The position numbers and the translations under genes are program-made. The notes beneath the pieces were generated by a model. It did no database searches, was not told the origin of the DNA, and saw nothing but the letters and a program-made list of their open reading frames with translations. This document shows positions 21,401 to 56,200 of a DNA stretch of 64,000 bases, piece by piece. Each line of letters starts with the position of its first letter. Position 1 is the stretch's first letter. Origin of the DNA: Azolla caroliniana (taxonomy: Eukaryota > Plantae > Polypodiophyta); assembly GCA_043228905.1 (NCBI GenBank), contig JBHGNT010000011.1:12958001-13022000 (forward strand), given 5' to 3'.

Positions 21401-22634
21401 CTTTGTTGAAAAAAACCGTGCTCGGCCACAACCGAGGAATAGGATCAACTCACAGAAAACAGGAAATACACAATGCACGAAGGCAATAGAGAGAAGAGTG
21501 CACAGGATGTTTTACGTGGAAAACCCTAAATGGGAAAAAACCACGGGAGTCCTCAAAACTCCAACTGAAACTATGAACAGAGATGTACAATGGTGAAGCT
21601 ACAAGGCAACAACCTTGAGCTCACTGTCTTAGCCACAGGCGACGGTAATACACAGAGGCAACGACCTCTTCGTCTCTCTCTCTCTCTCTCGGCTGCTCTC
21701 TTCACTCTCTCTCGGTGAAAACAGAACACATGAGCAGCAACATAAAACTGTTTGCCCTAAGTCATATTTATACACATATGACTTTCCGGCTATTTACAAA
21801 TATAGCCACAAGGGCCCTTGGCAAACATATTCACAAATATGTCCCCGCATCCGGATCTCTCTCCGGGTACATACATCATCCGGCTCCGTAGCCGGGTCTT
21901 CGTCATCCGGCTCCGTAGCCGGGTACTCTTCATCCGGCTTCATGCCGGGTACTCCTCATCCGGCTTCATGCCGGGTACTCCTCATCCGGCTTCATGCCGG
22001 GTACTCTTCATCCTCCGGTTCCGTAACCGCAACCGGGCTTGCCGTCATTCATCTCCGGACATCCCATCCGGAGGGACCGTAAATCCCAACAAGTAGAAAG
22101 CCACCCCCACCGACCTTGAGCTCCCGTAGCGTTATGTTGGTGAACCGGTGCCCTATGCCAGCCGGATTCCGTAAACTTGGGTCCGACGCGACCCCTTTTA
22201 TCCACTCCTCGCTTCCCTCTGGCAAGGGTGCCGCGATTGGCCTCACCTTCCGGTCCACAGTCTTGTACTTTGTATCCACGCGGGCCGTCCGATCCGACCC
22301 GATCCTTTCCCCGAAGTCCGCGATGACTTCGTACATTCCCATCGAACTAACCGGAACGGTCCATCTTCTCTAAGGTCTTCACCGATCACCTTTCGCAACT
22401 CGCCCAAGGTGTCGTCAAGAGAGACTGCCTCCACGGCGCCGCTGATTTCTTCGTTGGGGGAGAGGACTCCGCATCCCCTGAGGCGCTCCTTCGCTTGCTT
22501 CCTCTCCCGGCCGCTGACGCCGGCTATAGTACAACCTCCGTTTTCGGAGAACCAAAACTTCCTACCTATTGTACATGTGTGGGGTTCTTCTGGTACGTCC
22601 GGACTACCGCGGCCCCACGCCTTGATAGCTCTCT

Positions 22635-25405
22635 CTAAAAATCTCCTTGGTTGTCGCCGCCGAGGGTCTCGCGATTCCTCTCATGGTTCGGACGTACGAT
22701 CATGAATTGGACGGAATGCCGACCGTCTTGGCTCTTGACGTGCGCGTACGCCGAACCGTTGTCCAACACCTTCGTCTCCATGCGTGCTGCCGTGATGTAC
22801 AGTTCGCCGAGAATCACCGGGTGCGAGGATGTTTCCTGCATGAAGTAATGTTGATCTATCTCGACGTCACCGATCTTTACGTGTACATTCGTGCATGCAC
22901 CATGTAGCTCCTCCGTAGCACGCGTCGTCGCGCGTATCTTCCACCCATGCTTGGTGTTGATCGGCCATTTACCCTTCTTGTAGAAATCCATGGACATCAG
23001 GTTGATTTCGGATCCATGGTCTACCAAGGCCACCACCGGTTCCGGAACGTCGCCAATCCGCACAGGGGTTTCCGTAGTTGCCCTGGCCCAATGCGGCTTT
23101 GCGTGGTGGCTTTCCGCCAACTCGTCTTCTAGGGCCGTGTCTTCTAAGTGCGTAGTCCGCACCTCCACCGGCTTCTCCTGTTCCGGCTCCGTCGAGAGCC
23201 TCTTCCGTTTCACCAAGTCTACGATGGAGTCGTGGAACTCCCTCTTGGCGATTCCCAGCACCTCCCGCAATGACAACTCCACTTTACTATCGAGGATCCT
23301 CTCTTCAAGGACCTTCTGTAGGTCCGTTGCTCTCTCGATTTCGGCGCTCAACCGAAACCCCGCCTGCTTCTTCCCATCCGGCGTGCCTGGGTTGCCGGCA
23401 CCGGTCGGTTTTGGTCCGAACCGGCTCTCATACCTCTGCGGGGGACCGACCCCTCTGGCCTTTCCTACCCATTTGTCTTCCACCAGAACCTCGTAGTTCT
23501 GGCAAACGGCTTCTATGAAGCCCGTTTTCTCTTCGACCGGATCGTCCCATCCAGTGACCTCCTGGACCCGCTGTTCCGCGCGGTCCGCCTCTTCCTTCTT
23601 CAGCCGAACTCTGGAGAGGCCTTCTAGCACTAGCGGCCAGAATCCGGAGTCCTTCGCCTTCCGGGTCTCATCACCCCTGACCCGAATTCCCGCTGACACT
23701 AAGTAGTTAACGACTTCTACATGCCGTGCTACGGCCTCTTCCATCAACCTCTTCATTCTGCCGCGCCCCGTATTCATTTCTAGGGCTCTCCAGGTCTCGC
23801 TTGCGTGCACCTGCCCGTTCCAGAGGTACACCACGTTGGTCTTCAGTGCGTTGGCAAAATCCACGCAATCCTTCCGAATGTGTCCGATCGCGTCACACCA
23901 CATGCACTGCTGCCCAGCCGGCGGCCTTCGGTCGCGAGGTTGTTCGCCGTTGTCTCTCCGAGCCTGTGCGATCTGCAGGTCGCACACCATCTGTGTCAGC
24001 TCCTTCAGAGACGCTCCTCTGGATGGGCCTTTGACCACGTTGTTTGATGCCGACCCCGACTCCAGCCAAATTCGGGTCTCTTCCTTCCTTCCAGTTGGCA
24101 CTGATACTAGCTCCTTGAGCCTCCTCGCCGGAACCGGTCCTGACTCCGATGAGCTTTCGTCGCTCCACTCGCGCCGTTTGTCGAAACGGCTGCAGACCCG
24201 TTTTACCACGGCCTAGTCTACCGTGAGCCCTTCGTCCGTCTCCAATAGGGGACCCACCTTTTCCCTATTGAGCGCGTCCACCGACTTGACAAACAGTAGT
24301 ACTCGACTCGTTTCGAGCACGGTCCAGTCCAGCGTCGACAGCCGTACGAATCATTTTTCGAAATCCTGGAGGAGCGCTGACGTGTTCCTCCCTTTTCCAG
24401 GGCTTTCCACCCATGCCATGAAGTCCCGCTTTGACAACCGAAGCGAGTCATCAAACCCGTACTTCTCGAGGAGCTGCAGCTCGAACTCCTCCCAAGTCTG
24501 GCATCCAGCTAGCACCTCGAGGACCTGCCGAGGGAATCCGGACAACCGCTTGTCAACCGGGATATCCCTGATGATCATTTCGGCCCAGTAAGCCTCCAAA
24601 CAACTTGTGGGATTCTTCCCACCGAATCAGCCTATGCTGCTGACGATCGATTCAATGGCTATGTCGAGGGTACCCGTCCCCTCGCGAGCGCTCACCAGCC
24701 GGTCGACGGTTACCCTGACTCTAGCCAAATTCGGGGCTCTTCCTTCCTTCCAGCTGGCATCGATACCGGCTCCTCGAGGCTCATCGCCGGGACCGGTCCT
24801 TATTCCGATGAGCTTTCGTCGCTCCACTGGCGCCGTTTGTTAAAATGGTTGCAGACCCGTTTTACCACGACCCAGTCTGCCGTGAGCCCTTCGTTCGTCT
24901 CCAATAGGGGACCCACCTTTTCCCTGTTGAGCGCGTCCACCGAATTGACAAACAGTAGTACTCGGCTCGTTTCGAGCACGGTCCGGTCCAGCGTCGACAG
25001 CCGTGTGAATCGTTTTTCGAACTCCTGGAGGAGCGTCGACGTGTTCCTCCCTTTTCCGGGGCTTTCCACCCACGCCATGAAGTCCCGCTTCGACAGCCGA
25101 AGCGAGTCATCAAACCCATACTTCTCGAGGAGCTGCAGCTCGAACTCCTCCCAAGTCTGGCATCCAGCCAACACCTCGAGGACCTCTCGAGGGAATCCGG
25201 ATAGCCGCCTGTCCACCGGGATATCCCTCATGATCATTTCAGCCCGGTAAGCCTCCAAATAACTTGTGGGATTCTTCCCACCGAATCGGCCTATGTTGCC
25301 AACGATCGATTCAATGGCTCTGTCGAGGGTACCCATCCCCTCGCGAGCACTCACCAGCCGGTCGACGGCTACCGCCATTGCCTCTGCTAGCTCCGATCCC
25401 CTCAT
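22635..25405 (-). pseudogene. gag: Gypsy D gag-protease with an internal 659-bp tandem duplication
   Basis: MRGSELAEA..., CMWCDAIGHIRKDC, ALVDHGSEIN, ends GDF*. Confidence 0.9.
24053..25373. repeat. 659-bp tandem duplication in D gag
   Basis: 24053-24711 matches 24712-25373 at a constant 659-bp offset. Confidence 0.88.
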
Positions 25406-27734: not shown

Positions 27735-28409
27735 TGTCGTGAAGAAAACCGTCCCTAGGCGGAAACTGGGTATAACGTGCGTAAACCGGCCCTTACACAT
27801 GGGCACAAGTTTTGTTGTATAGTACGTAGATAGGTACAGGACGGTTGAGGTGAAATCCTAGGTAGCATGCATTCATTAGGGAGAAAATCGAGGCGTATCC
27901 CTATCCGAAAGGACAGGGAATAAACATGATGTAACGGGTGGTAACGACCTCCCTCCTTGGGCTATAAAGAGAGGGAGAGGTATTGTAAAAAGGGGAATCG
28001 CGTTTTGTGGAGGACGAAGTGTTGTCGGACTGGAACCGAGTTCTTCTCCTTTGTCTTCTCCATAGTCGTTTTGTGCAGGTTTTCGGGAGGCTGACTGTAC
28101 TCCACGGAACGCCCGAGTGCTTCCGTCAGAGTCTCCATCTCGCATTCTATGCGTGTGTGTGTGTGTAGGCATAAAGCCTATCACTCGCCGGCTTGCCGGT
28201 TGTAACTCCTCGATTTATATATATACATATACATTCGTTCAGTCTCCATCGTTCGGAGTTGTTTGCAACTCCTGTGAATCTGTGTTTCTGCGCGTGTGTG
28301 GAGTACATCAGTAGTTTCCTTCCCCTCTTCTCATTTAGTCAATTCTCGGTCCAAGGCCCCTGTGGTCCCGCCTTGTTCTCCGCGCATGCACGTAACAGCG
28401 CGACATATT

Positions 28410-28427
28410 TGGTGAACCCGACGTGAA
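28410..28427 (+). promoter_or_regulatory. PBS (tRNA-Trp) of G
   Basis: TGGTGAACCCGACGTGAA, complementary to the plant tRNA-Trp 3' end as recalled. Confidence 0.85.
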
Positions 28428-30208: not shown

Positions 30209-33200
30209 CCGCCGAAACGATACCCCAGAGCTCGCGTTTAACCTGGGCGTATCCTCGTTGTCGCTCGCTGAGGACCTTCGCGCCGTACCGGATCAGGAAA
30301 CGCATGCCGTCCTCGTCCTCTTGGTTGACGACCCATCCGATCCCAGTTGGACTCGTGTCTATCGTTACGTAAATTGGAGTGTCCTTTCCGTACACAGCCT
30401 TTCGGAGCGCCGGAGCTGCGGCAAGTGCTTCCTTCATCTTTCGGACAGACTCCGTATGCTCGTCTCTCCACTCGAATTTTCGCCCCTTTTCAGCAACCCG
30501 TATAACGGCTCCACGACGTGAGCGTAATGCGGGATCCATATGTGGTAGAACGTGCACGCTCCCAAGAACCTCCGAACCTCCATGACCGAGCTATAGTCGT
30601 CCTTCATCGCGGAGATGGCTTCTACCTTAGCCGGAGACGGTTTCCGGCCGAACGACCCGCATAGGTGTCCGACGACCATGATCTCTGATTGCCCGAAGGC
30701 CGATTTCCCCCCGGAGAAGGTGAGCCTCGCGCCCTCCAACCTCTACAACACCTTCTCGCAGTCATCGATGTGCGTCGCCACGAATTTCCGGCACCCGTCC
30801 GGTCCGATCGTCTCGTCCTTTTCCTCCACCGGGCATCCCTTGATTGGGACGTTGTCCAGAAACGGCATGGTGATTTCCGGGATACAATCCCTCAGCACCT
30901 TGGTCATTGCGTTCACCATGTGAGCCACCGAGTTTGTCCCTCCTTGTGGATAGGGTACACATCCGTACTAGGCCGAGAGGAGTTCGCATTGTCGCGATGT
31001 CTCTGCTCTCTATGGCTAGCCGAGTAGAGATCACCGCATATGTCCCTCCTTATCGTACCCCGAGTAGAGATCACCGACCGAGTAAATCGACCTTCCGGCG
31101 AAGGCCTCCGCGAACTCGTTTATTGTCGGTCCGATTCCTGCGTTTCGAATGGTCACCTTGTTGACCGGCTGCAGGTCTTGAATAAAGCGCAGCGTGCCGT
31201 CCTTCTTCGGCACGGTAAACCACCGATTCGAGTATGGGGCACTCGATGGTTCGAGGATGCCCATCTTGACCTTCTGCTTTAACAGCTCCATCAGCTTCGG
31301 GATGTGAGCTCTGGGTACTGGAATTGGTTTGAGACTCCACGGCACATGCGGTACCATGAATATCACCATCGGTTCCACGACTGTCGGGTCTACGCACCCG
31401 ATCTCCTCTGGTGAGAATGCGAAAGCCTTCCCGTGCCTTCCGAGCATTCCCCGAAAACGGTCCTCTTCCGCCAGCAGTAGGAAGCCGCCCCCAACTATTT
31501 TGAGCTCACGTAGTGTTATGTCGGTGAACGTGTGTCCTATGCGGGCCGGATTTCGTAAACTCGGGTCCGACACAACCCCCTTTATTCGCAACTCGTTGCC
31601 CTCCGGCAAGGGAGCCGTGACTGGCCTCACCTTCCGGTCCACAGTCTTGTACCTCGTGTCCACCCGGGTCGTCCGATCCGACTCGAGCCCTCTACTAAAG
31701 TCCGCGATGACTTCGTACATCCTTTCCGAACATATCGGAATCGTCCGGTCCTCTTTAAGGTCTCCTCCGACTACCTCTCACAGCTCCCCCAAGGTATCGT
31801 CGAAAGAGACCGCCTCCATGGCTCCGTTGATTTCCTCTCGAAGGCCAAGGATACCACATGCCCGAAGTCGCTCCTCCGCCCTTTTCTTCTTCCGGCCAAC
31901 AACGTCGACTATCGTACACCCTCCGTTGTCGGAGAACCAAAATCTCCTACTTATAGTACAGGTCTTCTTCGCTATTGTACACTTGTGGGGTTTTCCCGGA
32001 GTGTCCGGACTATCGCGGCCCCATGCCTTGATAGCCCTCTCTAAAAATCCTCTCGGCTTTCGCCCCCGAGGGTCTCGCGGTTCCACTCATGGCTCGGTCT
32101 CACCGTCAAGAACTGGACCGAGTGACGCCCATCCTGGCTCTTGACCCTTGCATAGGCCGAGCCGTTGTCTAGCACCTTGGTCTCCATCCGTGCTGCCGTG
32201 ATGTACGGTTCTCCTAGTATAACCGGATGTGAGGACGTCTCCTGCACGAAGAAGTGCTGGTCAATCTCGACATCGCCGATCTTTACTCGTACATTCGGGT
32301 AGGCTCCATGCAATTCTTCGGTGGCACACGTCGTTGCTCGTATTTTCCACCCGTGCTTGGTGTTGATCGGCCATTTCCCCTTTTGTAGAAGTCCATGGAC
32401 ATCAAATTGATTTCTGAACCGTGGTCCACCAACGCCACCACTGGTTCATGAACATCTCCGATCTTCACGGGGGTCTCCGCGGTCGCTCTGGCCCAGTGCG
32501 GCCTCGAATAGTGGCTCTCCACCAACTCGTCTTCCAGCGCCATGTCCTCTATGTGCGTCATCCGCACCTCCACCGGCTTCTCCGGTTCTGTCTCCGTCGA
32601 CAGCCTCTTCCTCTTCACCAAGTCTACGATGGAGTCGTGGAACTCTTTCTTGGCGATCCCGAGCACTTCCCTCAGCGACAGTTCCACCTTGTTGTCGAGG
32701 ATTCATTCTTCCAGGACCTTTCGCAGGTTCGTGGATCTTTCGATTTTCGTGCCCAGCCGGTACCTGCCCCTCTTGGGATTATCCTGGGCGCCGGTTACGT
32801 CGGCCTCATTCCGCCATTCCCCGAATCGAGTTTCATATCGTTGCGAGGGCCCGGCCCCTCCGGTTTTCCCTACCCGCTTGTCCTCCACCAGAGCCTTGTA
32901 GTTTTGACAAGCGTCTTTGACGAAGGCTGTCTTTTCTTCCACCGGGTCAGTCCACCCAGTTACCTCCCGGACCCGTTTTTCCGCGCGGTCCGACTCTTCT
33001 TTCCTTAGTCGTGTGCCGGCGAGGCCTTCTAGCATCGTCGGCCAGAACCCGGCTTTGTTCGTCTTCGGGGCCTCGCCACTTCCGACCCAAATACCAGCTA
33101 ACGCCGAGTAGCGGACGGTCTCCGCGTGACAAGCCGCCGCCTCCTCCATTAGCCTTTTCATACCCCCTCGCCCGACGTTCAGGTTCAGGGCCCTTTGGGT

Positions 33201-34166
33201 CTCGCTGGCGTGCACTCGACCGTTCCACAGGTACACCACGTTGCTTCTCATCGCCTCGGCAAAGTCCCCGCAGTCCTTCCGGATGTGGCCAACCGCGTCA
33301 CACCACATGCACCTGTTTTCAGCTAGAGGTCGTCAGTCACGAGCCTGTTCGCCACTATCCCTCCGTGCCTGGGCGATCTGGAGATCCTTTACCATCCGCG
33401 TCAGTTCCTCCAGAGCTGCTCCCCCGGTCGAGCCCTTGACCATGCCGGTCGAAGCCAATCCGGTCTCGAGCCAACCTCGGGTCTCTTCCCTTCACGTTGG
33501 TGGTGTTGGCTCGAGCTTCCTTGCTGCGACAGAGCCCGCTCCTGTCAATCCTTTGTCAACCCATTCCCGCCGTTTGTCGAAACGGCCACAGACCCTCTTC
33601 ACCACGGCCCAGTCGGCCGTCAGCCCGTCATCAGTCTCCAACAGGAGGCCTACTTGCTCCCGATCCCGCTCGTCAACTGACTTAACAAACAATAGGACAC
33701 GACTTGTGTCTAGAATGGTCCGGTCAAGCACCGAGCAGCGCGCGAAGCGTTCCTCAAAGTCCCGGAGGAGCACCGACGCGTTCCTTCCTTTGTCGGGGGT
33801 CTCCACCCACTCCATGAAGTCCCGCTTCGAAAGTCGAAGCGCATCTTCAAGCCTGTATTTTTCGAGGAGCCGACCTTCGAACTCCTCCCAGGTCCGGCTC
33901 TCGGCGCGTACCTCGAGCACCTCCGTATGGATACCTGGCATCGCCACTCAAGGGAATCCGGCTAGACACCTCTCTTCCAGAATGTCCCTCATTACCATCT
34001 CAGCCCGGTAGGATGCCAAGTAGCTCGTGGCATCCTTCCCACTAAACCGGCTTATCGTACCGACAACCGCCTCGATAGCCCTATCAAGGGCGCCGGTGCC
34101 TTCGCGCGCACTCACTATACGGTCCACAGCCGAAGCCATGGCTTCTGCAAGGTCCGACCCCCTCAT
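30209..34166 (-). pseudogene. gag-pol: Gypsy H gag-PR and RT-RNase H remnants
   Basis: MRGSDLAEA, WCDAVGHIRKDC, DHGSEIN, DLYSGY, DTSPTGIG; several frameshifts. Confidence 0.88.
31983..32050 (-). promoter_or_regulatory. Putative -1 frameshift signal of H
   Basis: G GAT TTT TAG, GGGCTATC/GATAGTCC stem, TGGGG/CCCCA pairing; -1 frame open (ORF 31778-32086). Confidence 0.75.
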
Positions 34167-35776
34167 CTTCTACTCCTCTGCCGCCTGTTCACGTCGGGTT
34201 CACCAAATATGTCGCGTTGCTACGCGCGTGCGTGGAGAACGAGGCGGGACCACTGGGGTCCTGGACCGAGGACTAGGTGAGAAAAGGGAGAGAGAGAGAG
34301 ACGCTCACACACGTATAGACAAAGAAGTGCACGGGGACGCGGCCCAACAACACAGGAGACACGAGTTGAGAACACTAGCGTATATATATAAATATGTGTA
34401 TGTATTTGTATGTATGCAGACGACTCGAACGGTTACAACCGATCAGGTCAGCGAGACGGATGCCGGCGCCTGATCACCCACGCACACAGGAGAGCAAGAT
34501 GGAGATTCTGCCGGAAGCACACGGGCGTTCCACAGAGCAGGATCAACCTCTTGAGAACCTACGCAAAAGAAAGCTATGGAGAACAACGGAGAAGAAGAGC
34601 TCGGTCCCAGTCCGACAACACTTCGTCCCCCCTAGGCCCCCCCCCCCCCCCCCTTTCCCTCTCTTTTATAGCTCAAGGAGGGAGGCCGTTTCACTCGTTT
34701 ACATCACATTAATTCTCTGTCCTTTCGGACAGAGATACTCCTCGATTTCCCCTATAGAATATTGCTACCTAGGGTTTGACTTTTGTGCCTACCTATCTAC
34801 TATAACACAAGGGACGTGCCCACGTGTAAGGGCTGGTTCACACACGCTATACACGGTTTGCGCCTGGAGATGGTTTTCTTCACGACAGCGGGAAGACGAG
34901 TCCGAGAGGCAACTGGGTGGATTGACCTGGTCGAAGAGAAGACGGGCTTCGTTGAAGCCGCTTGCCAAAACTACGAAGAGAGAACAAGCGTGCAGGTAAG
35001 ACCGGAGGGGTCGGACCCTCACAACGGTATGAGACCCGGTTAGGGCAAAAGCAGAATGATGACGGTGTGACCAGCGCACCGGATAAAGCCAAGAGGGTCG
35101 GGTATTGATTGAGCACGAAGATCGAGAGGACTACGGACCTGCGAAAGGTCCTCGAGGAACATATCCTCGAACAGCAAAGTGGAGTTGTCACTGAGGGAAG
35201 TGCTCGGAATCGCCAAGGAGTTCCACGACTCCATCGTGGACTTGGTGAAGCGGAAAAGGCTTTCAACAGAGTTGGAGCCGGAGAAGCCGGTGGAGGTGCG
35301 AACGACGCACCTAGAAGACATGGCTCTAGAAGACGAGTTGGCGGAGAGCCACTATTCAAGGCCACATTGAGCCAGAGCAACCATGGAGACCCCCGTTAAG
35401 ATCGGAGATGTTTAGGAGCCGGTGGTGGCGTTGGTGGACCACGGTTCAGAAATCAACTTGATGTCCATGGACTTCTACAAGAAGGGGAAGTGGCCGATCA
35501 ACACCAAGCACGGGTGGAAAATACAAGCAACAACGCGCGCCACGGAAGAGCTGCATGGAGCCTGCCCGAATGTACGAGTGAAAATCGGTGATGTCGAGAT
35601 CGATCAACACTTGGGGAACCGTACATCACGGCGGCACGGATGGAGACAAAGGTGCTGAACAACGGTTCGGCATATGCACAAGTCAAGAGCTAGGATGGCC
35701 GTCACTCGGTCCAGTTCCTGACGGTGCGACTGAACCATGAGCGTAACCGCGAGACCCTCGGTGGTGAAAACCGAGA

Positions 35777-35842
35777 GGATTTTTAGAGAGGGCTATCAAG
35801 GCGTGGGGCCGCGATAGTCCGGACACCCCGGAAAAACCCCAC
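35777..35842 (+). promoter_or_regulatory. Putative -1 frameshift signal of G (slippery heptamer plus pseudoknot)
   Basis: GGATTTT 35777-83, TAG, stem 1 35790-97/35813-20, stem 2 35803-08/35837-42. Confidence 0.78.
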
Positions 35843-37033
35843 AGATGTACTATAGGCAAAAATACCTGTACCATAGGTAGGAAATTTTGGTTCCCCGATA
35901 GCGGAGGTTGTACGATAGCCGGCATAGTTGGCCGGGAAAAGAAGCGGGCGGAGGAGCGACTTCGGGCATGCGGAGTCCTCGACCCTGAAGAGGAAATCAA
36001 TGGAGCTGTGGAGGCGGTCTCTTTCGATGACACCTTGGGGAAATTACGGGAGGTGTTCAGAGAAGGCCTTAATGAGGACCGAACAATTCCGGTGTGTTCA
36101 GAAAGGATGTACGAAGTCATCGCCGACTTCGGTAATGGACTCGAGTCGGATCAGATGGCCCGAGTGGATACGAAGTACAAGACTGTGGACCGGAATGTGA
36201 GGCCGGTCGTGGCACCCTTGGCGGAGGGCAGCGAGTTACGGATAACGGGGGTCGCGTCGGACCCAAGTTTACGAGATCCGGCCAGCATAGGACAAATGTT
36301 CACCGACATAACATTGCGGAAGCTCAAGATTGGTGAGGGTGGCTTTCTACTGCCGGCGGAAGAGGACCGGTTTCGGAGAATACTCGGGAGGCACGGGAAG
36401 GCTTTCACATTCACGGTACCGCATGTGTCGTGGAATCTCAAACCGATTCCGGTACCCAGAGCTCACATCCCGAAGCTGATGGAGCTACTGAAACAGAAGG
36501 TGGAGATGGGCATCCTCGAACCGTCAAGTGCCCCATACTCGAATCAGTGGTTTACCGTGCCCAAGAAGAACGGCACGTTGCGCTTTATTCAAGACATGCA
36601 GCCAGTCAACAAGGTGACCATTTGGAACGCAGGAATCGGACCGACCATAGACGAGTTCGCGGAGGCCTTCGCCGGAAGGTCGATTTACTTAGTCGGTGAT
36701 CTGTACTCGGGGTACGATCAGTTCCAACTAGCCGTGGAGAGCAGGGACATTACGATGATGCAGACCCATGTCGGCCTAGTGCGGATGTGTACCCTCCCGC
36801 AAGGAGGGACAAACTCAGTGGCCCACATGGTGAACGCAATGAACAAAGTGCTGAGGGATTGTATCTCGGGCATCACCATGCCATTCTTAGACGACATCCC
36901 GATCAAAGGATGCCCGACGGGGAAGAGGATCAAAGCATTCAAAAAGCGGCACGAGGCTGAACCGGGCCCGGACGACCTAGATAGCGACACTAACCGCCTC
37001 GGAAAGGATGTCAATCCGGAAGACGAAGGATAA
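35777..37033 (+). pseudogene. pol: Gypsy G pol: RT N-half fused to the last integrase residues
   Basis: ...PFLDDIPIKGCP|TGKRIKAFKKR. Confidence 0.88.
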
Positions 37034-37903
37034 GTGCGGGCTGGTCTTCTCCGGCAAGAGGTTAATTTTGGCGCATATCGGTGGATGCGCGGTTAGGCGG
37101 GGGCGGATGTCGTGAAGAAAACCATGCCTAGGCGGAAACCGGGTATAACGTGCATAAACCGGCCCTTACACGTGGGCACAAGTTTTGTTGTATAGTATGT
37201 AGATAAGTACAAGTCGGCTGAGGTGAAATCCTAGGTAGCATGCATTCATTAGGGAGAAAATCGAGGCGTATCCCTATCCGAAAGGACAGGGAATAAACAT
37301 GATGTAACGGGTGGTAATGGCCTCCCTCCTTGGGCTATAAAGAGAGGGAGAGGTATTGTAAAAAGGGGAATCGCGTTTTGTGGAGGACGAAGTGCTGCCG
37401 GACTGGAACCGAGTTCTTTTCGTTTGTCTTCTCCATAGTAGTTCTGTGCAGGTTTTCGGGAGGCAGACTTTTCTCCGCGGAACGCCCGAGTGCTTCCGTC
37501 AGAGTCTCCATATCGCGTTCTGTGCGTGTGTGCGTGTGTGTGTGCGTGCAGGTGTCGAAGCCTATCACTCGCCGGCTTGCCGGTTGTAACTCCTCGATTT
37601 ATATATATACATATACATTCGTTCAGTCTCCATCGTTCGGAGTTAGTTGCAACTCCTGTGAATCTGTGTTTCTATGCGCGTGTGGAGTACATCGGTAGTT
37701 TCCTTCCCCTCTTCTTATTCGGTTATTTCTCGGTCCAAGGCCGTCGTGGTCCCACCTCCTTCTCCGCGCACGCGCGTAACAACGCGACACCGGTTTCCAA
37801 ATCTCTTCTGATATTCACTGGGTCTATCCGATCTGGTTTCCGGATCTCCTCATTCATAACCGGATCCCATCCGGAGGGACCTATTTCCCAACAATCTCCC
37901 CCT

Positions 37904-43666: not shown

Positions 43667-46129
43667 GCCGTCGACAATATTCTCACACGAGTAGGAATCT
43701 TCGAAGGTATAAATTTAACAAGATTTCTGAAGATTTATAATGAAGAAATGCTTAAACGCGGTGTCGACGAAGCTGCAAAAATTAATAGCTTTAGTTGAGT
43801 CGTTGCGATTGGGCTACAAGAAAGGATTCAGGAGCTACAGAGGGAACATCAAACATGGGTGACTTTCAAAAGAGCATTGCTAAATGAATACAACCTCAAC
43901 GATATGTCAAGGATGACAAGGCGAGCCTTCATGGATTGGGTAGATTCTAATAAACATTTAAGTGTTTTGGAAGTATTAAAAGAGTTTACTGAAAGATTTG
44001 AGCAACTAAATGTTAGAGATAGAAATATAATAGTGCCAGATAAAGTCATATTGTTTCTACAAGCTACTAATATTAAAGACAAGAAGGACTTGGGAATGCT
44101 TTTAGAAGATCATAATAGTCCAAGTGGACTTACTGAAGACTGGGAGGAGGTGAAAAGGGCGTGTGCCCATTTCTGCAAAAGAAAGTTATGGTTTATGGAG
44201 TTGCCCGACAGAAATGATGAAGAAACAGGGAACGAGTCGAGAGAAAAGAAAGTAGAAGAATCACTCCTACAAGAATTGGTGAAAGGCATGAAAGACTTGT
44301 CGATCAAAGTGATGAAGTTATAATCAGGACAAAGCTCGACTTCATCAAGGCAGGGAGCTGGAATGGTCCGAAGGTGTATGTGGTGTGATAGTATCGACCA
44401 CCAGAAGAAAGATTGTCAAGAGCATAGGGATGCTCTTAATCATAATAAAATCCACTATCAAGAGGGCAAGATTCACTCGACAGAGACTCGACAACCACTT
44501 CAACTCAACTTCGGGTGAGGAGGAATGAAAAAGCTAATGGAAGATGCCGAGAGAGAAATGACTCAAGCGATACAATCCGTGGCAACCTTAGGGTTGCGCG
44601 TAGAAGACTCATATGGTGGATCTGGCTTTTGGCAAGATGTGATGGATTATGCAAGAAAAGGGAAGGTTCAAGTGAATGAATTAAAAAGAGCGGGAGATGA
44701 AATACGAAACTTCACTGGATGGAATGATCCAATAGATGCGCTATAAGCATTCGCCCAAGTGAATGCACAAGATGTGCTAGTGGAAGAGAAGCGGAAGAGA
44801 GTTGAGGAAGCTGATCCGACAAAGAGACATGAGACACGAGAACAGAAGAGAAGGGAGATGGAAAAGGGTGCTACTGAGCCGAAGGAAGTTGATAAAGTAA
44901 AAGGAAAGACAGGCTCATCTTTCAAGCTTGCCTCAGATATAGAAACAATGACGGATATAAAAAAGGTACTAGAAACAAGAATACTAAATAGTAAGGTAGA
45001 ATTTACTTTAAGAGAAGTGTTGGGTATAGCAAAGAAAGAATTTCGTGAAGTTATCATAGATATTATTAGAAGGAAGAGACAGGTGACGGAGGAAATTACG
45101 GGAGGGTGTGCAACAACACTCCAAGATTTGTATGGTGGCACCATTAATGCTGCAAGTGTAAAAAACCAGAATGATGTTGGCATCCATGAAGGGGATAGGA
45201 GTCACTATACAAGGGACCTTTGGGCTCGAGCAACAACGGAGGCACCTGCAAAAATTGGGGAGCAGCAAATTCCATGTATTGCTTTGATCGATCATGGATC
45301 CGAGATTAACATGATGTCATCAGAATTTTACGCTTGAGGACGGTGGCCGATTGACAAGAATCATGGGTGGAAAATAAGAGCTGCCACAGAGACTACGGAG
45401 GATCCATTTGGAGCATGTCCTAGTGTGCAGGTAACAATTGGTGATGTGTCGGTGAATCAAAATTTCTTTGTGCAGGATCGATCAACCTACCCCATCATCC
45501 TTGGTCAGCCCTACATCACGATCCGGATCGGAGGTAACTAGACCCCTATGCATCTGGACATGATGGTGGTGACATGGAGGAGAGGGATCCGTTTTCGGTT
45601 CGGTGCCGGCTGAATGGCGGCCAGGCCTGATAGTCTTTATCTATCCCAAAGTTCACCACCTCACGGCCTTCATGATGAACCGGTTCAGCGGAAATGGTCG
45701 AGATGTCTCACTAGCTTACGGACGTGATAAATCTCAATGTCCAGTCCCAGCACGGCACTGGCTAGGTTGGTCCAGAGTTGCTTGAGGAAGCGAATCCAGT
45801 CAGGGTTGAGAGACTTGAATTCACTGGTGATCTGAACTTTTACATTCACACTCTTCCCCAATCTCAGCTGAAGGCATCAACGAGATCTTTCTGTCTCTTT
45901 TATCCACATACTCTAGGTTTCTACTGAACCTCTGAATTATTTCCTGACCGCAGTGAGGATGGAAACAAAGGTTATTGATGATGGTTCGGCTTTCGCGAGA
46001 ATCAAGAGTCAAGATGGAAGAAAGACTGTCCAATTCTTAATTGTGAGGCCCAACCATGAAAGAAACAAAGAATGCTTGAGGGAACATCCAATTCAAGAGA
46101 TGGATGAAGAGTTTTCCCAGGATTTTTAG
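43667..46129 (+). pseudogene. gag: Gypsy K gag-protease (5'-truncated, stops, 429-bp insert)
   Basis: CMWCDSIDHQKKDC, ALIDHGSEIN, ILGQPYIT|AVRMETKV, ends QDF*. Confidence 0.88.
45521..45949. other. 429-bp foreign insertion in K protease, origin unknown
   Basis: Splits the conserved PYIT|A.RMETKV; no LTR, TIR, TSD or polyA seen. Confidence 0.8.
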
Positions 46130-46177
46130 ATAGGGCTTTTACAGGTAGGGGTTGTGATAACATAAAAGAAAACCCCA
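46120..46177 (+). promoter_or_regulatory. Putative -1 frameshift signal of K
   Basis: G GAT TTT TAG; -1 frame open for 69 codons into ORF 46327; GGGGTT/AACCCC pairing. Confidence 0.75.
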
Positions 46178-49100
46178 TAAATAATAATGTAAATAAAGAT
46201 ATTCCTTGTACAATCTCATCTAATGGTGCTACTTTTATACTAAAAGTAAATAATAATAAAATACAAAATGCTTTCGAGTACTTTAAGTGTTTTGGATTAA
46301 TAGATGATGATGAAGAAATTCAGGATATGTTTGAAGAATTAAGTTTTGAAGATACAATAACTCATTTGGAAGCAATGGCAGAAGACAACGAAATCCAAGT
46401 TCCTGTCCATTCAATCAAGATGTACGAGGTCATTGAAGAAGTTGCTCGAAAGGATCATGAAGCACATGTACTAACAAAGTACAAGACAGTGGAGAAGAAG
46501 GTTCGTCCTATTGCTGCTCCACTTCCAGGGGATAGTGAAAAGGCAATCAAAGAAGTAGCCACAGAGCCAATGATCAGAGACCCACGAAAGGTAGGACATG
46601 TGTTTACTCCGGAAACAATACAAGGGATGAAAATAGGAGGGGGTGACTTCCTATTACCCGCTGAAGAAAAGCAGTTTAGGGAGATGTTAAAAAGGCATGG
46701 AAAGGCGTTCACATTCCAACCGAAGGAAATAGGGTGTGTGGATCCAGAAATTGTGGAGCCCATGGTTATATTCACTATCCCTCATATTCCATGGAACTTT
46801 AAGCCAATACCCATGCCTAGGGCTAGAATCCCTCAACTATTAGAACTTTTGAAAGAAAAGATAAGGATGGTTATCTTGGAACCATCGAACGCTCCTTACT
46901 CGAGTCGATGGTTCACTGTGTTAAAGAAAGATGGGCGACTCCGATTTATCCAAGATATGCAACCCGTGAATAAGGTAGCAATCCGAAACTCGGGAGTAGG
47001 GCCAATTGTGGATGAGTTTGCTGAGATGTTTGTAGGAAGAGCTATATATTCAATGGGAGACCTTTATCCCGGGTATGATCAATTTCAACTTGCTCTCAAA
47101 AGTCGAGATATAACTTCTATCAAGACACCTATAGGGTTAGTACGGATGTGCACCTTGCCGCAAGGAGCGACCAACTCAGTGGCGCATATGATGAATGGAA
47201 TGAACAAGGTACTTCGTGATTTTATTCCTCATATTACAATGCCTTTTCTAGATGATGTTCCAATTAAGGGATGCAAGGAGGAAGAGAAGAACGAGGAATT
47301 GGATGAAAGTGGTTGCCGTCAATTTGTTGCTGATCATATCAAGGATTGTGAGAAGGTGCTATCAAGGATGGAAGAAATGCATTTGAACTTATCAGGGGTG
47401 AAGTCAATATTTGGGGCAAAAGAGATCTTAATAGTTGGTCATATGTGTGGCCCGTACGGGAGAAAGCCATCCCCAGCCAAGGTCAATGCAATTCAAAATA
47501 TGCAAGAGGAATGTACATTCGTCTCAGAAGTACGAAGGTTTCTGGGGGTATGTGTTTTTTACTGTAAATGGATTTCGCATTATGCCCATTTATCTGAAAC
47601 TTTATATAGACTCCTAAGAAAAGGAGAGACATTTGAATGGAGTGAAGAGCATTCAAAGGCAATGAAGAGATTGAAGTACTGCTTAGCACAAGCTCCACCA
47701 TTAAAGCAACCTGACTACACCCGACCCATATATCTCACAGTAGACTCTAGTCCCATTGGAATTGGATGGGTGATAAGCCAACAAGATGGGGAAGAAATGT
47801 ATCCAGTCCGATTCAGAGCAAAGGTTCTTAGTGGTCGACAAAGAAAATATGCACAGGTGAAAAGAGAGCTATGGGGGATAGTAACAGCAGTAAAGACAGA
47901 CAGAGATTACTTAATTGGTGTTGAAGTAATAATAGAAACAGATTGTTTGCCTATTCTTGGTATCATAGCTAATTGTGATATTCCAAATCAAGCCATGTTA
48001 AGATGGTGTATCTATATTAGATCAGTCAACCCTGAAGTTCGACATATCTCTGGGAATAGAAATGCAGTAGCAGATATGTTATCAAGAGCAAGGTATGAGG
48101 AAGAGGAGATTCCAGACTCGGACGATGAGGAAAAAGAACAAACAGCCCTTACCACAAGCATTACCCGGGAAGGAGGAATGTAGTTTCTAGAAGAGGAGTA
48201 TGAAGAAGAATTCAAGGAAATAGGGAAATACCTACAAACCCCTGACAAGTACAAAGGTCGATCTAAAAAAGAGTTCACACAGTTTCGCAAGAAAGCCCAT
48301 AAGTTCTTCCTGCATGAAGGATATCTATGGCGACATCTGAAAACCAAGACTTGAAACCCGCAAAGAGTAATAGGTTCTGAAGGGCAAAGAAAGGAGATAA
48401 TCAGAGAGCTACATGACAAAGAATGGGCTGGTCATCGAGGAGTGTGGGCCACTTTCAGTAAGATTAAAGAACGATTTTGGTGGCCTCGATACTATGAGCA
48501 AATAAAAAAGTATGTGGAAACTTGTCCCACTTGTCAATATTATTCAAACGTAAAATTTTGTGATGAATTACACCCAACATACTCACCGAGGGTGCATTAC
48601 AAGTGGATGATAGATTTGGTAACAATGCCACTTGGAGTAGGACAAAATAGATACTTGGTTCTTGCTAGAGAAGATCTAACAAATCAAGTGGAAGGCCGTT
48701 CATTGCGAACAAAAGGGACATTAGGAGTATGTCAATTCATCTTGGAGGACATTGTTTGTAGATATGGATGTATCGGGAAGATAGTGGCAGATAGGGGAGA
48801 GCTCAATTTTGCGGAAGCTCAAGATTTTTTCGACAAAATAGGAATTTGGCTTTCTTTGACAACGGCGTACAATCCAGAAGCTAATGGAAAGGTAGAAAGG
48901 GGACATGGGCCAATAGTCAAAGCTTTGGCAAAGGCATGTAGAGGACGGGTCAGTGATTGGCAAAGGCATGCACTATGGGCTGATAGGACAACTCACAGCA
49001 CTGTTACTGGATTTATGCCTGCAGAATTAATCACAGGACAGAAGCCAATAATGTCAATTGAAGAAAAGATAACTACATGGGTTGTGTTGCCTTGGGAATC

Positions 49101-49569
49101 GGAAATGAGTAGGGAAGATTTACTTGCGGTTCGAATACGACAACTTCAATCAAGGACAGAAGACATAGAAAAAGCAGCTACTAGATTGAAAGAGGCAAGA
49201 ATCAAGAATAAGGACAGGTTTGACAAGATGAAAAGAATACAACCAAGAAAGGTGCAAGAGGGAGATTGGGTATTAGTATATGATAGTAGCCTAGATAATC
49301 AATACAGTACTATTCGGAAGTTTGCAAAAAGATGGTTTGGACCTTATGAAGTTAGGAAAATAACAGATAAAGCCACATATTTCCTCAATGAATTAGATGG
49401 GACAGAAATTCGTATCCCAATTGCAGGAAAAAGGATTAAAATATTTAAAAGGAGGGAGTCATTAGAGCCCGAATTTTATGAAGAAGTAGAAGAACTAAAA
49501 GAATCGGAAGAAGTGTTGGATGAACTCTGCACAACCAATGTGCAAGTTCAGAGGGGGTGGGTGTCGTGA
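46120..49569 (+). pseudogene. pol: Gypsy K pol (RT, RNase H, integrase), two in-frame stops, no chromodomain
   Basis: LPQGATNS, FLDDVPIKG, VDSSPIG, GHRG..CPTC, DRGE, WFGPY; stops at 48181 and about 48352. Confidence 0.92.
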
Positions 49570-50036
49570 AGAATGTGCTTCACGATATAAAAATGAGCTT
49601 AAATGTTGTATTTAATAATATTTGAAAGACTTGAACCCACATCCTTATATACGATGTACAATGTACATACCACTAGGCTAGGCTATTTATTTGTAAAAGT
49701 GTGTAATAAATGTGCTTCATGATATAAGAATGAAGCTATATTGTATTAAGTAAAATTGAGGGACTTGAAGCCTCAACCTTGTATACCAAGCACCAAGCCA
49801 TGCATTTTCATCATTATACTTATCCCATATCTATTTTCATACATAGCCATCATTCATCACATGCAATGCATGTGTGCCAAATGGCGATCATACATTACAT
49901 GTAACTCATGCATTGCATGCATGCCATACTCCCATACATTACCATATGCATGGCAACACTTATATAAAGAGGGGCAAGGAAAACAAGAAAGGAATCAAGA
50001 GAGAGTGAGAAAATAAAACAATCAAGTAGAGAAGAC

Positions 50037-50091
50037 TAGCTCATTGGGTGGAGAACCTCTCGTTTCGAAGTTGAGGTCGTGGGTTCAAATC
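50037..50091 (+). promoter_or_regulatory. tRNA-like Pol III A-box/B-box module in K LTR (second copy 43614-43666)
   Basis: TAGCTCATTGG and GGTTCAAATC at tRNA-like spacing. Confidence 0.55.
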
Positions 50092-50492: not shown

Positions 50493-53238
50493 ACGGGTAC
50501 CCTCGACAAAGCCATTGAATCGATCGTCGGCACTATAGGCCGGTTCGGAGGGAAAGACGCCACAAGTTATTTGGAGGCTTACCGGGCCGAAATGATCATG
50601 AGGGATATCCCGGTGGACAGGCGGTTGTCCAGATTCCCTCGGGTGGTGATGTCGGGCATCCACGCGGAGGTGCTCGAGGTGTTGGCCAGATGCCAGACTT
50701 GGGAGGAGTTCGAGCTACAGCTCCTCGAGAAGTACGGGTTTGACGACTCGCTTCAGCTGTCGAGGAGGGACTTCATGGCGTGGGTGGAAAGCCCCGGAAA
50801 AGGGAGGAACACGTCCTTGCTCCTCCAGGAGTTCGAAAAGCGGTTCACGCAGCTGTCAATGCTGGACTGGACGGTGCTTGAAACGAGTCGAGTACTACTG
50901 TTTGTCAAGTCAGTGGACACGCTCGACAGGGAAAGGGTGGGTCCCTTATTGGAAATGGACGAAGGGCTCATGGCAGACTAGGCCGTGGTAAAACGGGCCT
51001 GCAACCGTTTCGACAAACGGCACGATTGGAGCAACGGAAGCTCGTCGGGGTCAGGGCCGGTCCCGGCGGGGAGGCTCGAGGAGCCGATATCGGTGCAAGC
51101 TGGCAGGAAGGAAGAGACCCGAAATTGGCTAGAGGCCCATCCGGAGGAGCGGCTCTGGAGGAGCTAACACAAATGGTGCGTGACCTGCAGATCGCACAGG
51201 CACGAAGAGACAGCGGCGAACAACCCCGCGACCGAAGGCCGCCAGCTAGGCAGCGGTGCATGTGGTGTGACGCGATTGGTCACATTCGGAAGGATTGCGC
51301 GGATTTCGCCGACACGCTCAAGTCCAACGTGGTGTACCTTTGGAACGAGCGGGTGCATGCGAGCGAGACCCGGAGAGCCCTAGAACTAAATACGGGGCGC
51401 GGCGGAATTAAGAGGCTAATGGAAGAGGCCGCAGCACAGCATGTAGAAGTCGTTAACTACACAGTGTCGGCAGGAATTCGGGTCGGGGGTGATGAGTCCC
51501 GGAAGGTGAAGGACTCCGGATTCTGGCCACTAGTGCTCGAAGGCTTCTCCGGAGTTCGGCTGAAGAAGGAAGAGGCAGACCACGCGGAACAGTGGGTCCA
51601 GGAGGTCACCGGATGGGACGATCAGGTCGAAGAGAAAATAGGCTTCGTAGAAGCCACTTGCCAGAACTACGAGGTTCTGGTGGAAGACAAACGAGTAGGA
51701 AAGGCCGGGGGGATGGGTTCCCCGCAGAGGTACGAGACCCGGTTCAGACCGAAACCGACCGGTGCCAGCAACCCAGGCGCGCCGGACGGAAAGAAGCAGA
51801 CAGGGTTTAGGTTGAGCACTGAAATCGAGAGAGCAACGGACCTATGGAAGGTCCTTGAAGAGCGGATCCTCAACAGTAAAGTGGAGTTGTCGTTGCGGGA
51901 GGTGCTGGGAATCGCCAAGAGGGAGTTCCATGACTCCATCGTAGACTTGGTGAAGCGGAAGAGGCTCTCCATGGAGCCAGAACCGGAGAAGCCGGTGGAG
52001 GTGCGGACTACGCACTTAGAGGACGCGGCCCTAGAAGACGAGTTGGAGGAAAGCCACTACGCGAAGCCGCATTGGGCCAGGGCAACTACGGAAACCCCTG
52101 TGTGGATCGGCGACGTTCCGGAACCAGTGGTGGCCTTGGTAGACCATGGATCCGAAATCAACCTGATGTCCATGGATTTCTGACAGGAATGCACGCTCCC
52201 TTTTCCACAACACTCGGCCACAACTGAGTCTAAAATCGAACACAGAAAACGGATAATGAACGCACGACACAAAGGAGAGAAGAGTACACAGGATGTTTAA
52301 CGTGGAAAACCTTGAGAGGGAAAAACCACGGGAGTCCACAGACTCCAAACTATCACTATATCACAATGATTACAATAGTGAGCTCACAAAGGCAATGACC
52401 TCCTGCTCACGATCTTCGCCAAAGGCGGCGGTTACAACAGAGGCAATGACCTCTTCCTCTCTCTCTCTCTCTCTCTCTGTACACTTTTACGCGCTCTCTA
52501 GTCTTGCATCAACAAGAATGACAACATACATACAAATTTTGCCCTAAGTCATATTTATACTAATATGACTTTTCGGCTATTTACAAATATAGCCCCGATG
52601 AACTCTCAGAAACATATTTACGAATATGTCCCTTTATCCGGCGAGCACTCCTCACCGGGCTTGCATCATCTGGTGCTTGCCGGGCACACGACATCCGGTT
52701 CTCACCAGGTCTTCACCATCCGGCTCTTGCTGGGTACTCGTCATCCGGTTCTCACCGGGTCCTCCGTAGTCGGGTACTCGTCATCCGGTTCTCACCGGGT
52801 CTTCCATTGCCGGGTACTCCACATCTGGTTTGGTCATCAGTATTTTTCTTCTCACTTCCCATCCGGAGGGACTTGTTTCCTAACAATTTCTACAAGAAGG
52901 GTAAATGGCCGATCAACACCAAGCACGGGTGGAAGATACGCGCAGTGACGCGTGCTACGGAGGAGATGCACGGTGCGTACCCAAATATACGCGTAAAGGT
53001 CGGTGACGTCGAGATAGATCAACATTTCTTCGTGCAGGAAACATCCTCGCACCCGCTAATTCTTGGAGAACCATACATTACGACAGCACGCATGGAGACG
53101 AAAGTGTTCGACAACGGTTCGGTGTACGCGCGCGTCAAGAGCCAAGACGGTCAGCATTCCGTCCAATTCATGACCGTACGTCCGAACCATGAGAGGAATC
53201 ACGAGACCCTCAGCGCCGGGAGCCGAGGGGATTTTTAG
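50493..53238 (+). pseudogene. gag: Gypsy J gag-protease (starts 43062, split by K and L)
   Basis: CMWCDAIGHIRKDC, ALVDHGSEIN, ends GDF*. Confidence 0.88.
52181..52885 (-). mobile_element. Solo LTR L (B family), perfect TSD ATTTC
   Basis: ATTTC at 52176-52180 and 52886-52890; TGACAGG...CCTAACA. Confidence 0.93.
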
Positions 53239-53294
53239 AGAGGGTTATCAAGGCGTGGGGCTGCGGTAGTCCGGACGTACCGGAAGAACCCCAC
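53229..53294 (+). promoter_or_regulatory. Putative -1 frameshift signal of J
   Basis: G GAT TTT TAG; stem GGGTTATC/GGTAGTCC; GTGGGG/CCCCAC; -1 frame open for 70 codons into ORF 53439. Confidence 0.75.
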
Positions 53295-56200
53295 ACATGT
53301 ACAGTAGGTAGGAAGTTTTGGTTCTCCAAAAATGGAGGTTGTACTATAACCGGCGTCAGCGACCGAGAGAGGAAGCGAGCGGAGGAGCAGCTCAGGGGAT
53401 GCAGAGTCCTCTCCCTCGACGAAGAAATCAGCGGCACCGTGGAGGCGGTCTCTTTTGACGACACCTTGGGCAAGTTGCAAAAGGTGATCGGGGAAGACCT
53501 TAGAGAAGACCGGACCATTCCGGTTAGTTCAATGGGAATGTACGAAGTCATCGCGGACTTCGGGGAAAGGATTCGGTCGGATCGGACGGCCCACGTGGAT
53601 ACAAAGTACAAGATTGTGGACCGGAAGGTGAGGCCAGTCGCGGCACCCTTGCCAGAGGGCAGCGAGGAGTGGATAAAAGGGCTCGCGTCGGACCCAAGTT
53701 TACGGAATCCGGCTGGCATAGGGCACCGGTTCACCGACATAACGCTACAAGAGATCAAGGTTGGTGAGGGTGGCTTTCTACTGCCGGCGGAGGAGGACAG
53801 GTTCCGTAGAATGCTGGGAAGGCATGGGAAAGCCTTCGCGTTCTCGCCAGAGGAGATCGAGTGCGTGGACCCGACGATCATCGAACCGATGGTGATCTTC
53901 ACGGTACCGCATGTACCGTGGAATCTCAAACCGATTCCGGTGCCGAGAGCTCACATCCCGAAGTTGATGGAGCTTCTGAAGCAAAAGGTGGAGATGGGCA
54001 TCCTCGAACCGTCGAGTGCCCCGTATTCGAATCGGTGGTTTACGGTGCCGAAGAAGAACGGCACGTTGCGCTTCATTCAGGACCTGCAACCGGTCAACAG
54101 GGTGACCATCCGTAATGCAGCAATCGGACCGACCATAGACGAGTTTGCGGAGGCCTTCGCTGGAAGGTCGATTTATTCGGTCGGTGACTTATACTCAGGG
54201 TACAACCTGTTCTAGTTAGCCGTGGAGAGCAGGGATATCACGACGATGCGAACCCCTCTCGGCCTGGTACGAATGTGTACCCTACGACAAGGCGGGACAA
54301 ATTCGGTAGCGCATATGGTGAACACAATGAACAAGGTACTCAGGGACTGCATCCCGGACATCACCATGTCATTCTTGGACGACATCCCGATAAAGGGGTG
54401 TCCGATGGATGACGCGGATGAGACTGTCAGGCCAGACGGATGCCGGAGGTTCGTCGTGAACCACATCAACGACTATGAGAAGGTGTTGTAGAGGCTCGAA
54501 AAGGCACGACTCACCTTCTCCGGAGAAAAATCGGCGTTCAGACAATCGGCGATCTTGGTGGTTGGACACCTGTGCGGGCCTTACGGTAGAAACCGTCTCT
54601 GAAAAAGGTAGAGGACATCTCCGCGATGAGGGACGATTGTGGGTTGGTCACGGAGGTCCGCAGATTCTTGGGAGCGTGCGTGTTCTACCACATCTAGATT
54701 CCGCACTACGCGCATGTTGCAGAGCCTCTCTACAGGCTATTGAAGAAAGGGCGTGGGTTCGAGTGGAGGACGGAGCACACGGAGTTGGTCCGGAGACTAA
54801 AGGAGGTGCTTACGGTAGCGTCGGCCCTCCGTAAAGCGGTTTACAGCAAGGGTGTCCCCATTTGCGTGACGGTGGACACGAGCCCGACCAGGATCGGGTG
54901 GGTAATTCGTCAGGGGGACAAGGACGGCGTACGATTCCCAATCCGGTTCGGGGCAAAGGTATTAAGCGAGCGGCGGCGAGGATACGCCCACGTTAAGGGC
55001 GAGCTTTAGGGTATCGTTTCGGCAATCAAGGCCAACAAGGACTATCTGATCGGGACGGAGGTGACCATCAAGACGGATTGCCTGCCGATACTCGGCATGG
55101 TTTCCGGATGCGCGACGCCGGACTTAGCAATGCTCCGGTGGATAGCGTACATTAAGTCCCTGAACCCGGAGATACGGCACATCTCCGGAAAGGACAACGC
55201 CATGGCCGACATGCTTTCGAGAGCGAGGTTCAACGACGAAGACGACATGGTTTCGGATGACGAAGAAGTCGGCGAGGACTTCTTCGGGTCGGCTAACGTA
55301 ACAGCGAGGAAAAGGGACACTCCGGCGCTTAACGAATTTGACGAAAGTAGGTACAACAGGAAGTGGCTCCAAATCGGGAGGTTCCTACGGACGATGACGC
55401 CGGACGTAGCATGGACGAGAGAAGAGGCGAGCCGGGTACGGAAGAAGGCGTACCGATTCTTCCTGTGGGACGAGCGCATATGGAGGCACCCAAAGAAGAG
55501 AAACGGCATCCTGCTCCGAGTAGTGGCAAAGAAAGAAGAACAAGAGGAACTACTGGCAGCATTTCACGAGAGTTCTTGGGCCAGGCACCGCGGAACGTGG
55601 GCCACATTCGAAAAGCTGAAGGAGAAGTACTAGTGGTCGGGGTTGTACCAGGACGTGCATCGGTTCGTAATGACTTGTGAAAATTGTCAAATGCACTCCG
55701 TAGTCCGACATCGGGACGAGCTACACCCAACTTACCCGCCTGCGGTTCATTTCAAGTGGATGGTGGACTTGGTGACGATGTCGATGGGAGTAGGACAGAT
55801 GCGATACTTGGTGCTTGCGCGGGAAGACTTAACGAACCAGGTGGAAGGGCATGCACTGCAGAACAAGACAACCGCGGCGGTATGCCGGTTCTTGATCGAA
55901 GAGGTAGTGTGTCGGTACGGGTGCGTCAAGAGGATTGTCGCACCCGGGGAGAGCTGGATGCGCGCGAAGCTGAGGAGCTGTTCGACCAGCTGGGCGTCAA
56001 ACTCTCCCTCACTACGGCGTACAATCCGGAGGCGAACAGGAAGGTAGAACGTGGGCGCGGGCCGATCGTAAAGGCGTTGGTGGGTGCATGCGGAGGGCAG
56101 GCCAGGAATTGGCCGCGGCGCCTTCCTTACGCGCTATGGGCAGACCAAACTACACACAATTCGGTGACAAGGTTTATGTCGGCTGAGCTGATGTACGGAC

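Follow-up and report, generated by a model that had tools for sequence, protein, structure and literature searches.

Retrotransposons of the Phygy type very probably produce their Gag-protease-Pol polyprotein by programmed -1 ribosomal frameshifting, with a predicted H-type pseudoknot as the stimulating structure. The layout of the open reading frames, the slippery heptamer, the spacer and the covarying stems are observed directly in the copies and related loci described below. Taken as a whole, the cassette is likely a genuine recoding signal of a familiar kind that extends across the lineage, the lineage comprising elements of mosses, liverworts and ferns, with a likely -2 offshoot.

Five gypsy copies, named G, H, J, K and D, are present in the window, i.e. 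the whole 64-kb stretch of DNA that was analysed. One 17-nt primer-binding site, a putative match to tRNA-Trp, follows the LTR at four places in the window and in 34 of the 40 loci examined. The Gag frame of the window copies carries DUF4100, and the Pol domains are RT, RNase H and integrase. These traits fit the Phygy lineage of Neumann et al. 2019 (PMC6317226), whose ORF organisation is entered as ND in the available part of that reference survey. Indeed, as in the Phygy entry of REXdb (PMC6317226, available part), the elements are non-chromovirus gypsy elements with (i) the domain order GAG-PROT-RT-RH-INT, without a chromodomain and without an extra RNase H, (ii) a 4-bp target-site duplication of the form NCGN, readable in G (CCGG/CCGG) and H (GCGG/GCGG), decayed in J (CCGG/TCAG) and not resolved in K and D, and (iii) best named relatives in Physcomitrium; in contrast to that entry, homologues of the proteins are here also named from Riccia and Adiantum. 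Within the window, elements of the lineage are nested, H in the gag gene of G (27735-37789) and K in J (42352-57403). Within pol of D, which resumes at 16624, lies a copia element (16626-22092, minus strand) whose frame of 1,381 codons is unbroken; its LTRs are 96% alike, and it has a 5-bp duplication. The protease regions of K and J are interrupted by insertions of about 430 bases (45520-45946) and about 700 bases (52190-52887), respectively, and a stretch of about 660 bases is duplicated in tandem at the start of D (24053-25373, minus strand), its two units being 91% alike.

The protease is encoded at the end of the first ORF, where the original prediction had placed it. Pfam protease matches of this region were below the cut-off and a sequence search of solved structures returned only Ty3 Gag-Pol (E 0.11); the assignment was decided by a fold search, the predicted fold being that of a retropepsin (pLDDT 71) with the Ddi1, XMRV and HIV proteases as best structure matches. 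Neither a chromodomain nor a protease match was found in the four Pol proteins scanned. The usual retropepsin motif is Asp-Thr/Ser-Gly; the motif here is Asp-His-Gly, with the histidine in 21 of 22 alignment rows and in copy D (22638-23192, minus strand), within the predicted retropepsin fold. In Pol, the RT core is preceded by about 270 residues, consisting of a fast-changing linker of about 130 residues and then a conserved stretch (L013:1908-2750; K 46120-46900) for which Pfam gave no match.

The heptamer and stop codon were found at every place where they had been predicted. Indeed, GGATTTTTAG is present at 35777(+), 46120(+), 53229(+) and 32050(-), in copies G, K, J and H, and AGATTTTTAG, with A replacing the first G, at 22644(-) in copy D. 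The count of GATTTTTAG in the 64-kb window is 5, versus 0.63 expected per shuffled window, and a search with a cassette model, built from sequences that include copy G itself, returned exactly the five known places in the window and nowhere else. A frame check agrees that GAT TTT TAG closes the Gag-protease frame in all five copies. Counted from GGA, the open stretch of the -1 frame measures 418 codons in G and 328 in J; it is longest in K (687) and shorter in H (90) and D (133), and the frame reaches Pfam RT matches in G and in K; the open frame had thus been correctly foreseen, but the lengths first given (77 codons in G, 70 in J, 69 in K) were not. None of the five copies is intact, all being decayed and nested, and the protease frame upstream of TAG has only 30 open codons in G and 70 in K. 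The two pairings proposed for G (35790-97 with 35813-20, and 35803-08 with 35837-42) are correct on checking the sequence, and stem 1 of J is kept through G-U pairs, as had been claimed. In copy D, the first G is replaced and one pair of stem 1 is gone. In copy K, 6 nt are missing from the 3' strand of stem 1; its relatives L070 and L075 (93% identical) have them, and K therefore lends no support to the pseudoknot. With its copies decayed and nested and K lacking part of stem 1, the window alone suggests the case and does not prove it.

Table 1. Features of the cassettes and of the elements that carry them; positions refer to the window or to the locus named.
Feature	Position	Strand	Remarks
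Slippery heptamer G_GAU_UUU, copy G	35777..35783	+	0 frame Asp-Phe; -1 frame Gly-Phe
Spacer, copy G	35784..35789	+	6 nt, starts with the Gag-protease stop TAG
Pseudoknot stem 1, 5' strand, copy G	35790..35797	+	predicted
Pseudoknot stem 2, 5' strand, copy G	35803..35808	+	predicted; within the stem 1 loop
Pseudoknot stem 1, 3' strand, copy G	35813..35820	+	predicted
Pseudoknot stem 2, 3' strand, copy G	35837..35842	+	predicted
Gag-protease, 3' part, copy G	34888..35786	+	DHG protease motif; interrupted by stops and frameshifts
-1 frame, copy G	35777..37033	+	418 codons, partial RT domain; element truncated beyond
5' LTR, copy G	27735..28405	+	CCGG target-site duplication on left; primer-binding site from 28410
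3' LTR, copy G	37108..37789	+	91% identical to 5' LTR; CCGG on right
Cassette, copy H	31979..32050	-	
Cassette, copy J	53229..53300	+	stem 1 with G-U pairs
Cassette, copy D	22573..22644	-	first G = A, one stem-1 pair lost
Gag (DUF4100)-protease ORF, copy D	22635..24212	-	525 codons, ends Asp-Phe-stop
Cassette, copy K	46120..46186	+	heptamer intact, stem 1 3' strand partly missing
-1 frame, copy K	46120..48183	+	687 codons, RT and RNase H
Cassette, L050	L050:2836-2907		G_GUU_UUU, 5-nt spacer, Pol in -2/+1
Cassette, L056	L056:2498-2569		G_GUU_UUU, 5-nt spacer, Pol in -2/+1

Related loci were obtained from a metagenome scan, and the best 80 of 164 relatives were retained; two of these run off the contig and 16 are without a nearby RT match, leaving 62 for the frame count. 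Among these best 80 of 164, the 62 loci with an RT match divide as follows: Pol lies in -1 and is free of stops from the heptamer on in 57, is open in the -2/+1 frame in two and is broken in three. A gag-pol fusion in a single frame, named in the original prediction as evidence against it, is present in none of the 62. The full Pol frame is about 1,150 codons long. Counts of relatives are counts of sequences and not of evolutionary events, and 78 of the 80 loci are named from one assembly series, in which many copies are probably collapsed, and thus do not represent independent hosts. Contigs of this plant retrotransposon (L081, L082) occur in a cyanobacterial and a Streptomyces genome record and are likely contamination; L081, which is not among the sequences of the cassette model and scores only 16 bits, has the same layout with 909 open codons in -1. 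At the protein level, 84 of 128 homologous proteins with a protease motif near the end, including ones named from Physcomitrium, Riccia and Adiantum, terminate at Asp-Phe, 30 terminate five residues past Asp/Gly-Phe, two at Val-Phe-X and 12 otherwise. In a large subgroup (L060, L079, L080; proteins such as P0040, P0063 and P0072), which includes Physcomitrium and Adiantum proteins, the stop falls within stem 1, five codons past the shift site.

Among 74 related sites, the heptamer is G_GAU_UUU at 67, G_GAU_UUC at 4 and G_GGU_UUU at 1, the last two forms also permitting -1 re-pairing. Its conservation across related copies, to which the original prediction had pointed, reflects selection at the nucleotide level. 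Indeed, in 28 representative -1 loci picked as non-redundant, the first G is present in 28/28 and occupies the wobble position of 10 different codons (log10 P -4.6 with one count per codon type), the aspartate codon is GAT in 27/28 and never GAC, the exception being GGT (background GAT:GAC 579:449), and the phenylalanine codon is TTT in 26/28 and TTC in 2/28 (background 229:273). A G that is kept across codons, together with the bias for GAT and TTT, indicates a constraint on the RNA and not on the protein. In RCNMV the heptamer is followed by UAG, and here too UAG had been counted as part of the signal; this part of the prediction fails, because the next codon varies among the 74 sites (TAG 30, TAA 28, TGA 11, sense 5), so that the stop may be any of the three or may lie a few codons later. 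The spacer to the first G of stem 1 measures 6 nt in all 28 representative -1 loci, within the 5-8 nt range of a canonical -1 cassette.

Both stems of the pseudoknot covary across the related loci. In a plain MAFFT alignment of 31 cassettes, 9 of the 11 pairs of stem 1 change on both sides (reached by 2/500 shuffles) and the covariation score is 0.342 versus 0.216 (0/500 shuffles); only 5 of 248 cells are unpaired in the 8-pair core, and sliding the partner along reduces pairing from 83% to 24-44%. Stem 2 was assessed by partner swapping, because its 3' strand shifts with loop length: its own partner gives -13.1 kcal/mol against -10.6 kcal/mol for swapped partners, a result reached in 0/100,000 permutations, both for the 31 rows and for 17 clade representatives. 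L050, L060, L072 and L078 have differing stem-2 sequences, each with a matching partner, and the loop partner is local, 25-35 nt away, and covarying. Pseudoknot-aware folding also agrees with the structure put forward originally. H-type pseudoknots were sought in each cassette and, under identical constraints, in 40 dinucleotide shuffles of it: in 54 of the 58 distinct cassettes no more than one shuffle matched the knot, and in the other four no knot was found. The best knot is not the homologous one in several cassettes (K, L018, L044, L046, L052 and L071). Plain folding alone is weak (z -0.4 to -1.9), that of G (z -1.3) being unexceptional with competing hairpins. The 4-nt gap between the stems of G exceeds that of textbook H-type knots, and 5 of 30 foreign partners beat its own stem-2 partner, because stem 2 of G is mostly G-C. 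An Rfam search returned no matching family.

These features would fit the -1 mechanism set out for established cases in the available sections of PMC5009743. A ribosome with tRNA-Asp and tRNA-Phe on GAU UUU would meet stem 1, and a minority of ribosomes would slip in tandem to GGA UUU and read RT-RNase H-integrase, the remainder stopping at once or within five codons. With most ribosomes stopping, the protease is proposed to be made at the level of Gag and the enzymes in a low, constant proportion.

Three other readings of the main group were rejected: a +1 shift, since that frame meets a stop in the first 30 or so codons; stop-codon readthrough, since the next stop in the 0 frame follows within 3-64 codons; and chance decay of a single ORF, since the same frame and place recur across proteins that are 57-90% identical. 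The joining of Pol to Gag-protease by splicing, with the U-run and AG as a 3' splice site, is very improbable. TTTTTAG does resemble an acceptor, and Ogre offers a precedent (PMC6317226, available part), but among the 28 representative loci AG directly follows the U-run only 12 times, being offset differently in 13 and missing within 10 nt in three, and a donor-like context is found at any GT column in at most 4 of 29 loci. Longer homologues that extend past the junction or join protease and Pol do exist, and four Riccia gene models share the same predicted join; however, all 25 are annotated gene models (Riccia 22, Physcomitrium 3) with mostly differing joins, and none is a plain ORF call. 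Splicing would, moreover, not require a -1 frame that is open from the heptamer. Related loci did not reveal an Ogre-like non-coding spacer with a conserved splice donor or acceptor, their frames being overlapping.

Translation of Pol from an AUG of its own, whether by reinitiation or by internal initiation, with the structure serving that process or packaging, has a still smaller chance of being correct: an AUG precedes the conserved region (about codon 125) in every Pol frame, but the first AUG is not conserved and wanders from codon 3 to codon 111, while the frame is open back to the heptamer and, in the window copies, closed 3-14 codons upstream of it. Such initiation would also leave the selection on G_GAU_UUU and the fixed spacer unexplained. 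Slippage of the polymerase, and not of the ribosome, could add an extra base at the five-U run found at most sites; this is the least probable explanation, as the U-run is only three long at the four G_GAU_UUC sites, where Pol is still in -1, and both the first-position G and the spacer of 6 nt are as expected from re-pairing of tRNAs and from the geometry of the ribosome. Programmed -1 frameshifting is thus the preferred reading for the main group.

Two loci, L050 and L056, have Pol in a different frame. They form one clade (support 100/100) and are 77.5% identical over 5.6 kb, their differences being mostly at third codon positions in protease and Pol, in keeping with purifying selection; L050 has one stop within gag. 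The site is CAG GUU UUU followed by one sense codon and then UAG, i.e. the heptamer G_GUU_UUU, which is the -2/-1 site of PRRSV (PMC6675879, available part). The -1 frame is stopped at once in L050 and after 7 codons in L056, and the -2/+1 frame is open over 1,154 and 1,101 codons, respectively, with all Pol domains. A strong predicted pseudoknot is kept in both loci, 5 nt from the site as against 6 nt in the other 29 aligned rows. Assembly error was rejected as an explanation, since two divergent families are involved and Gag ends are alike in several sequences: among the 19 cluster sequences listed, Gag ends at Val-Phe-Asp in six and Val-Phe-Tyr in two, most others being fragments that stop earlier, and two end types in several sequences make a single assembly slip unlikely.

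The clade probably reaches Pol by a net -2 slip, the two loci apparently representing one event. As -2 and +1 lead to the same frame, a +1 shift was also considered, a direction known in sireviruses and Ty1/Ty3 (PMC5009743, available part); UUU_UAC in L056 lets tRNA-Phe re-pair at +1, but UUU_GAC in L050 offers no good +1 re-pairing, re-pairing of the A-site Phe at -2 is complete in L050 and L056 alike, and the site is the PRRSV -2 heptamer with the pseudoknot kept and the spacer 1 nt shorter. For this clade, +1 is accordingly judged unlikely. According to the accessible part of PMC3458567, the best spacer for -2 shifting is 1-2 nt shorter than that for -1 shifting; the -2 optima there are 6-7 nt in mammalian systems, so that only the direction carries over. 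On balance, the comparison slightly favours a scenario in which one Phygy clade would have turned a -1 signal into a -2 signal by losing a spacer base and gaining G_GUU_UUU while keeping the pseudoknot. L050 and L056 resemble the arterivirus nsp2TF -2/-1 signal (PMC6675879, available part) in several respects: the heptamer is G_GUU_UUU, re-pairing at -2 is full in the A site but poor in the P site, a long ORF is open in -2, and the -1 frame soon meets a stop. Arteriviruses, however, need a C-rich motif with nsp1-beta and PCBP (same source), whereas the stimulator in L050 and L056 would be the pseudoknot. A C-rich motif 9-10 nt downstream is absent in these two loci, stem 1 being located there.

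In avian retroviruses, Gag and protease are in one frame. Because the Phygy shift sits between protease and RT, the protease is likewise in ORF1, and the shift resembles the pro-pol shift of beta- and deltaretroviruses (PMC5009743, available sections). With the retroviral and animal or fungal Ty3/gypsy cassettes treated there (RSV, MMTV, Drosophila elements, PEG10), the Phygy cassette shares the heptamer, the short spacer, the H-type pseudoknot and Pol in -1 behind a stop; it differs from them in belonging to a plant element and in its G_GA heptamer, variants of which are listed in the same sections. Umbravirus, dianthovirus and luteovirus sites (PEMV2 G_GAU_UUU; available parts of PMC5009743 and PMC10602861) share the heptamer, a close 0-frame stop and plant ribosomes, and one relative has G_GGU_UUU. 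The likeness of the signal to those of dianthoviruses and umbraviruses drawn originally is nevertheless supported for the heptamer only, because in these viruses the loop of a bulged stem-loop forms long-range pairs with the 3' end, in contrast to the local covarying pseudoknot predicted for Phygy; furthermore, the Phygy cassette tolerates any stop codon, or none directly after the heptamer. Viral contigs contained neither a match to the cassette pattern nor a relative of the protein. A protease in ORF1 is also shared with Ogre and Retand (GAG-PROT then RT-RH-INT), in which, according to the available part of PMC6317226, the frames are separated by a spliced spacer of about 274 bp and by a single stop, respectively, whereas those of Phygy overlap, one apart.

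Frameshifting of the -1 type in LTR elements is well known for animals and fungi. Plant elements with separate frames known by 2016 are of the +1 type in the available part of a 2016 review (PMC5009743), whose natural -2 cases concern phage Mu, arteriviruses and a Trichomonas virus, with none for retroelements. Overlapping GAG and PROT-POL frames are recorded for Tcn1 and Selgy, direction not given, in the available part of PMC6317226, and overlapping frames in plant elements are therefore not new. The open literature, with subscription journals and Repbase outside its scope, yielded no account of the Phygy cassette and none of a retrotransposon that shifts by -2, and no such cassette is described in the available parts of PMC3350952, PMC7466625, PMC10602861 and PMC8708638. 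The -1 recoding signal of the Phygy lineage thus appears to be undescribed.

In summary, -1 frameshifting would settle how Pol is produced in a whole lineage of plant retrotransposons with ORF organisation listed as ND, and would explain the introns that bridge these elements in gene predictions. For plant ribosomes, a single compact frameshift element is available here in dozens of natural versions. As the -1 and -2 clades are one spacer base apart, the spacer-tension model, based so far on engineered constructs, becomes testable on natural signals; if the -2 reading is true, reverse transcriptase in this clade would depend on a natural -2 frameshift driven by a pseudoknot, and evolution itself would have put the mRNA-tension model to the test.
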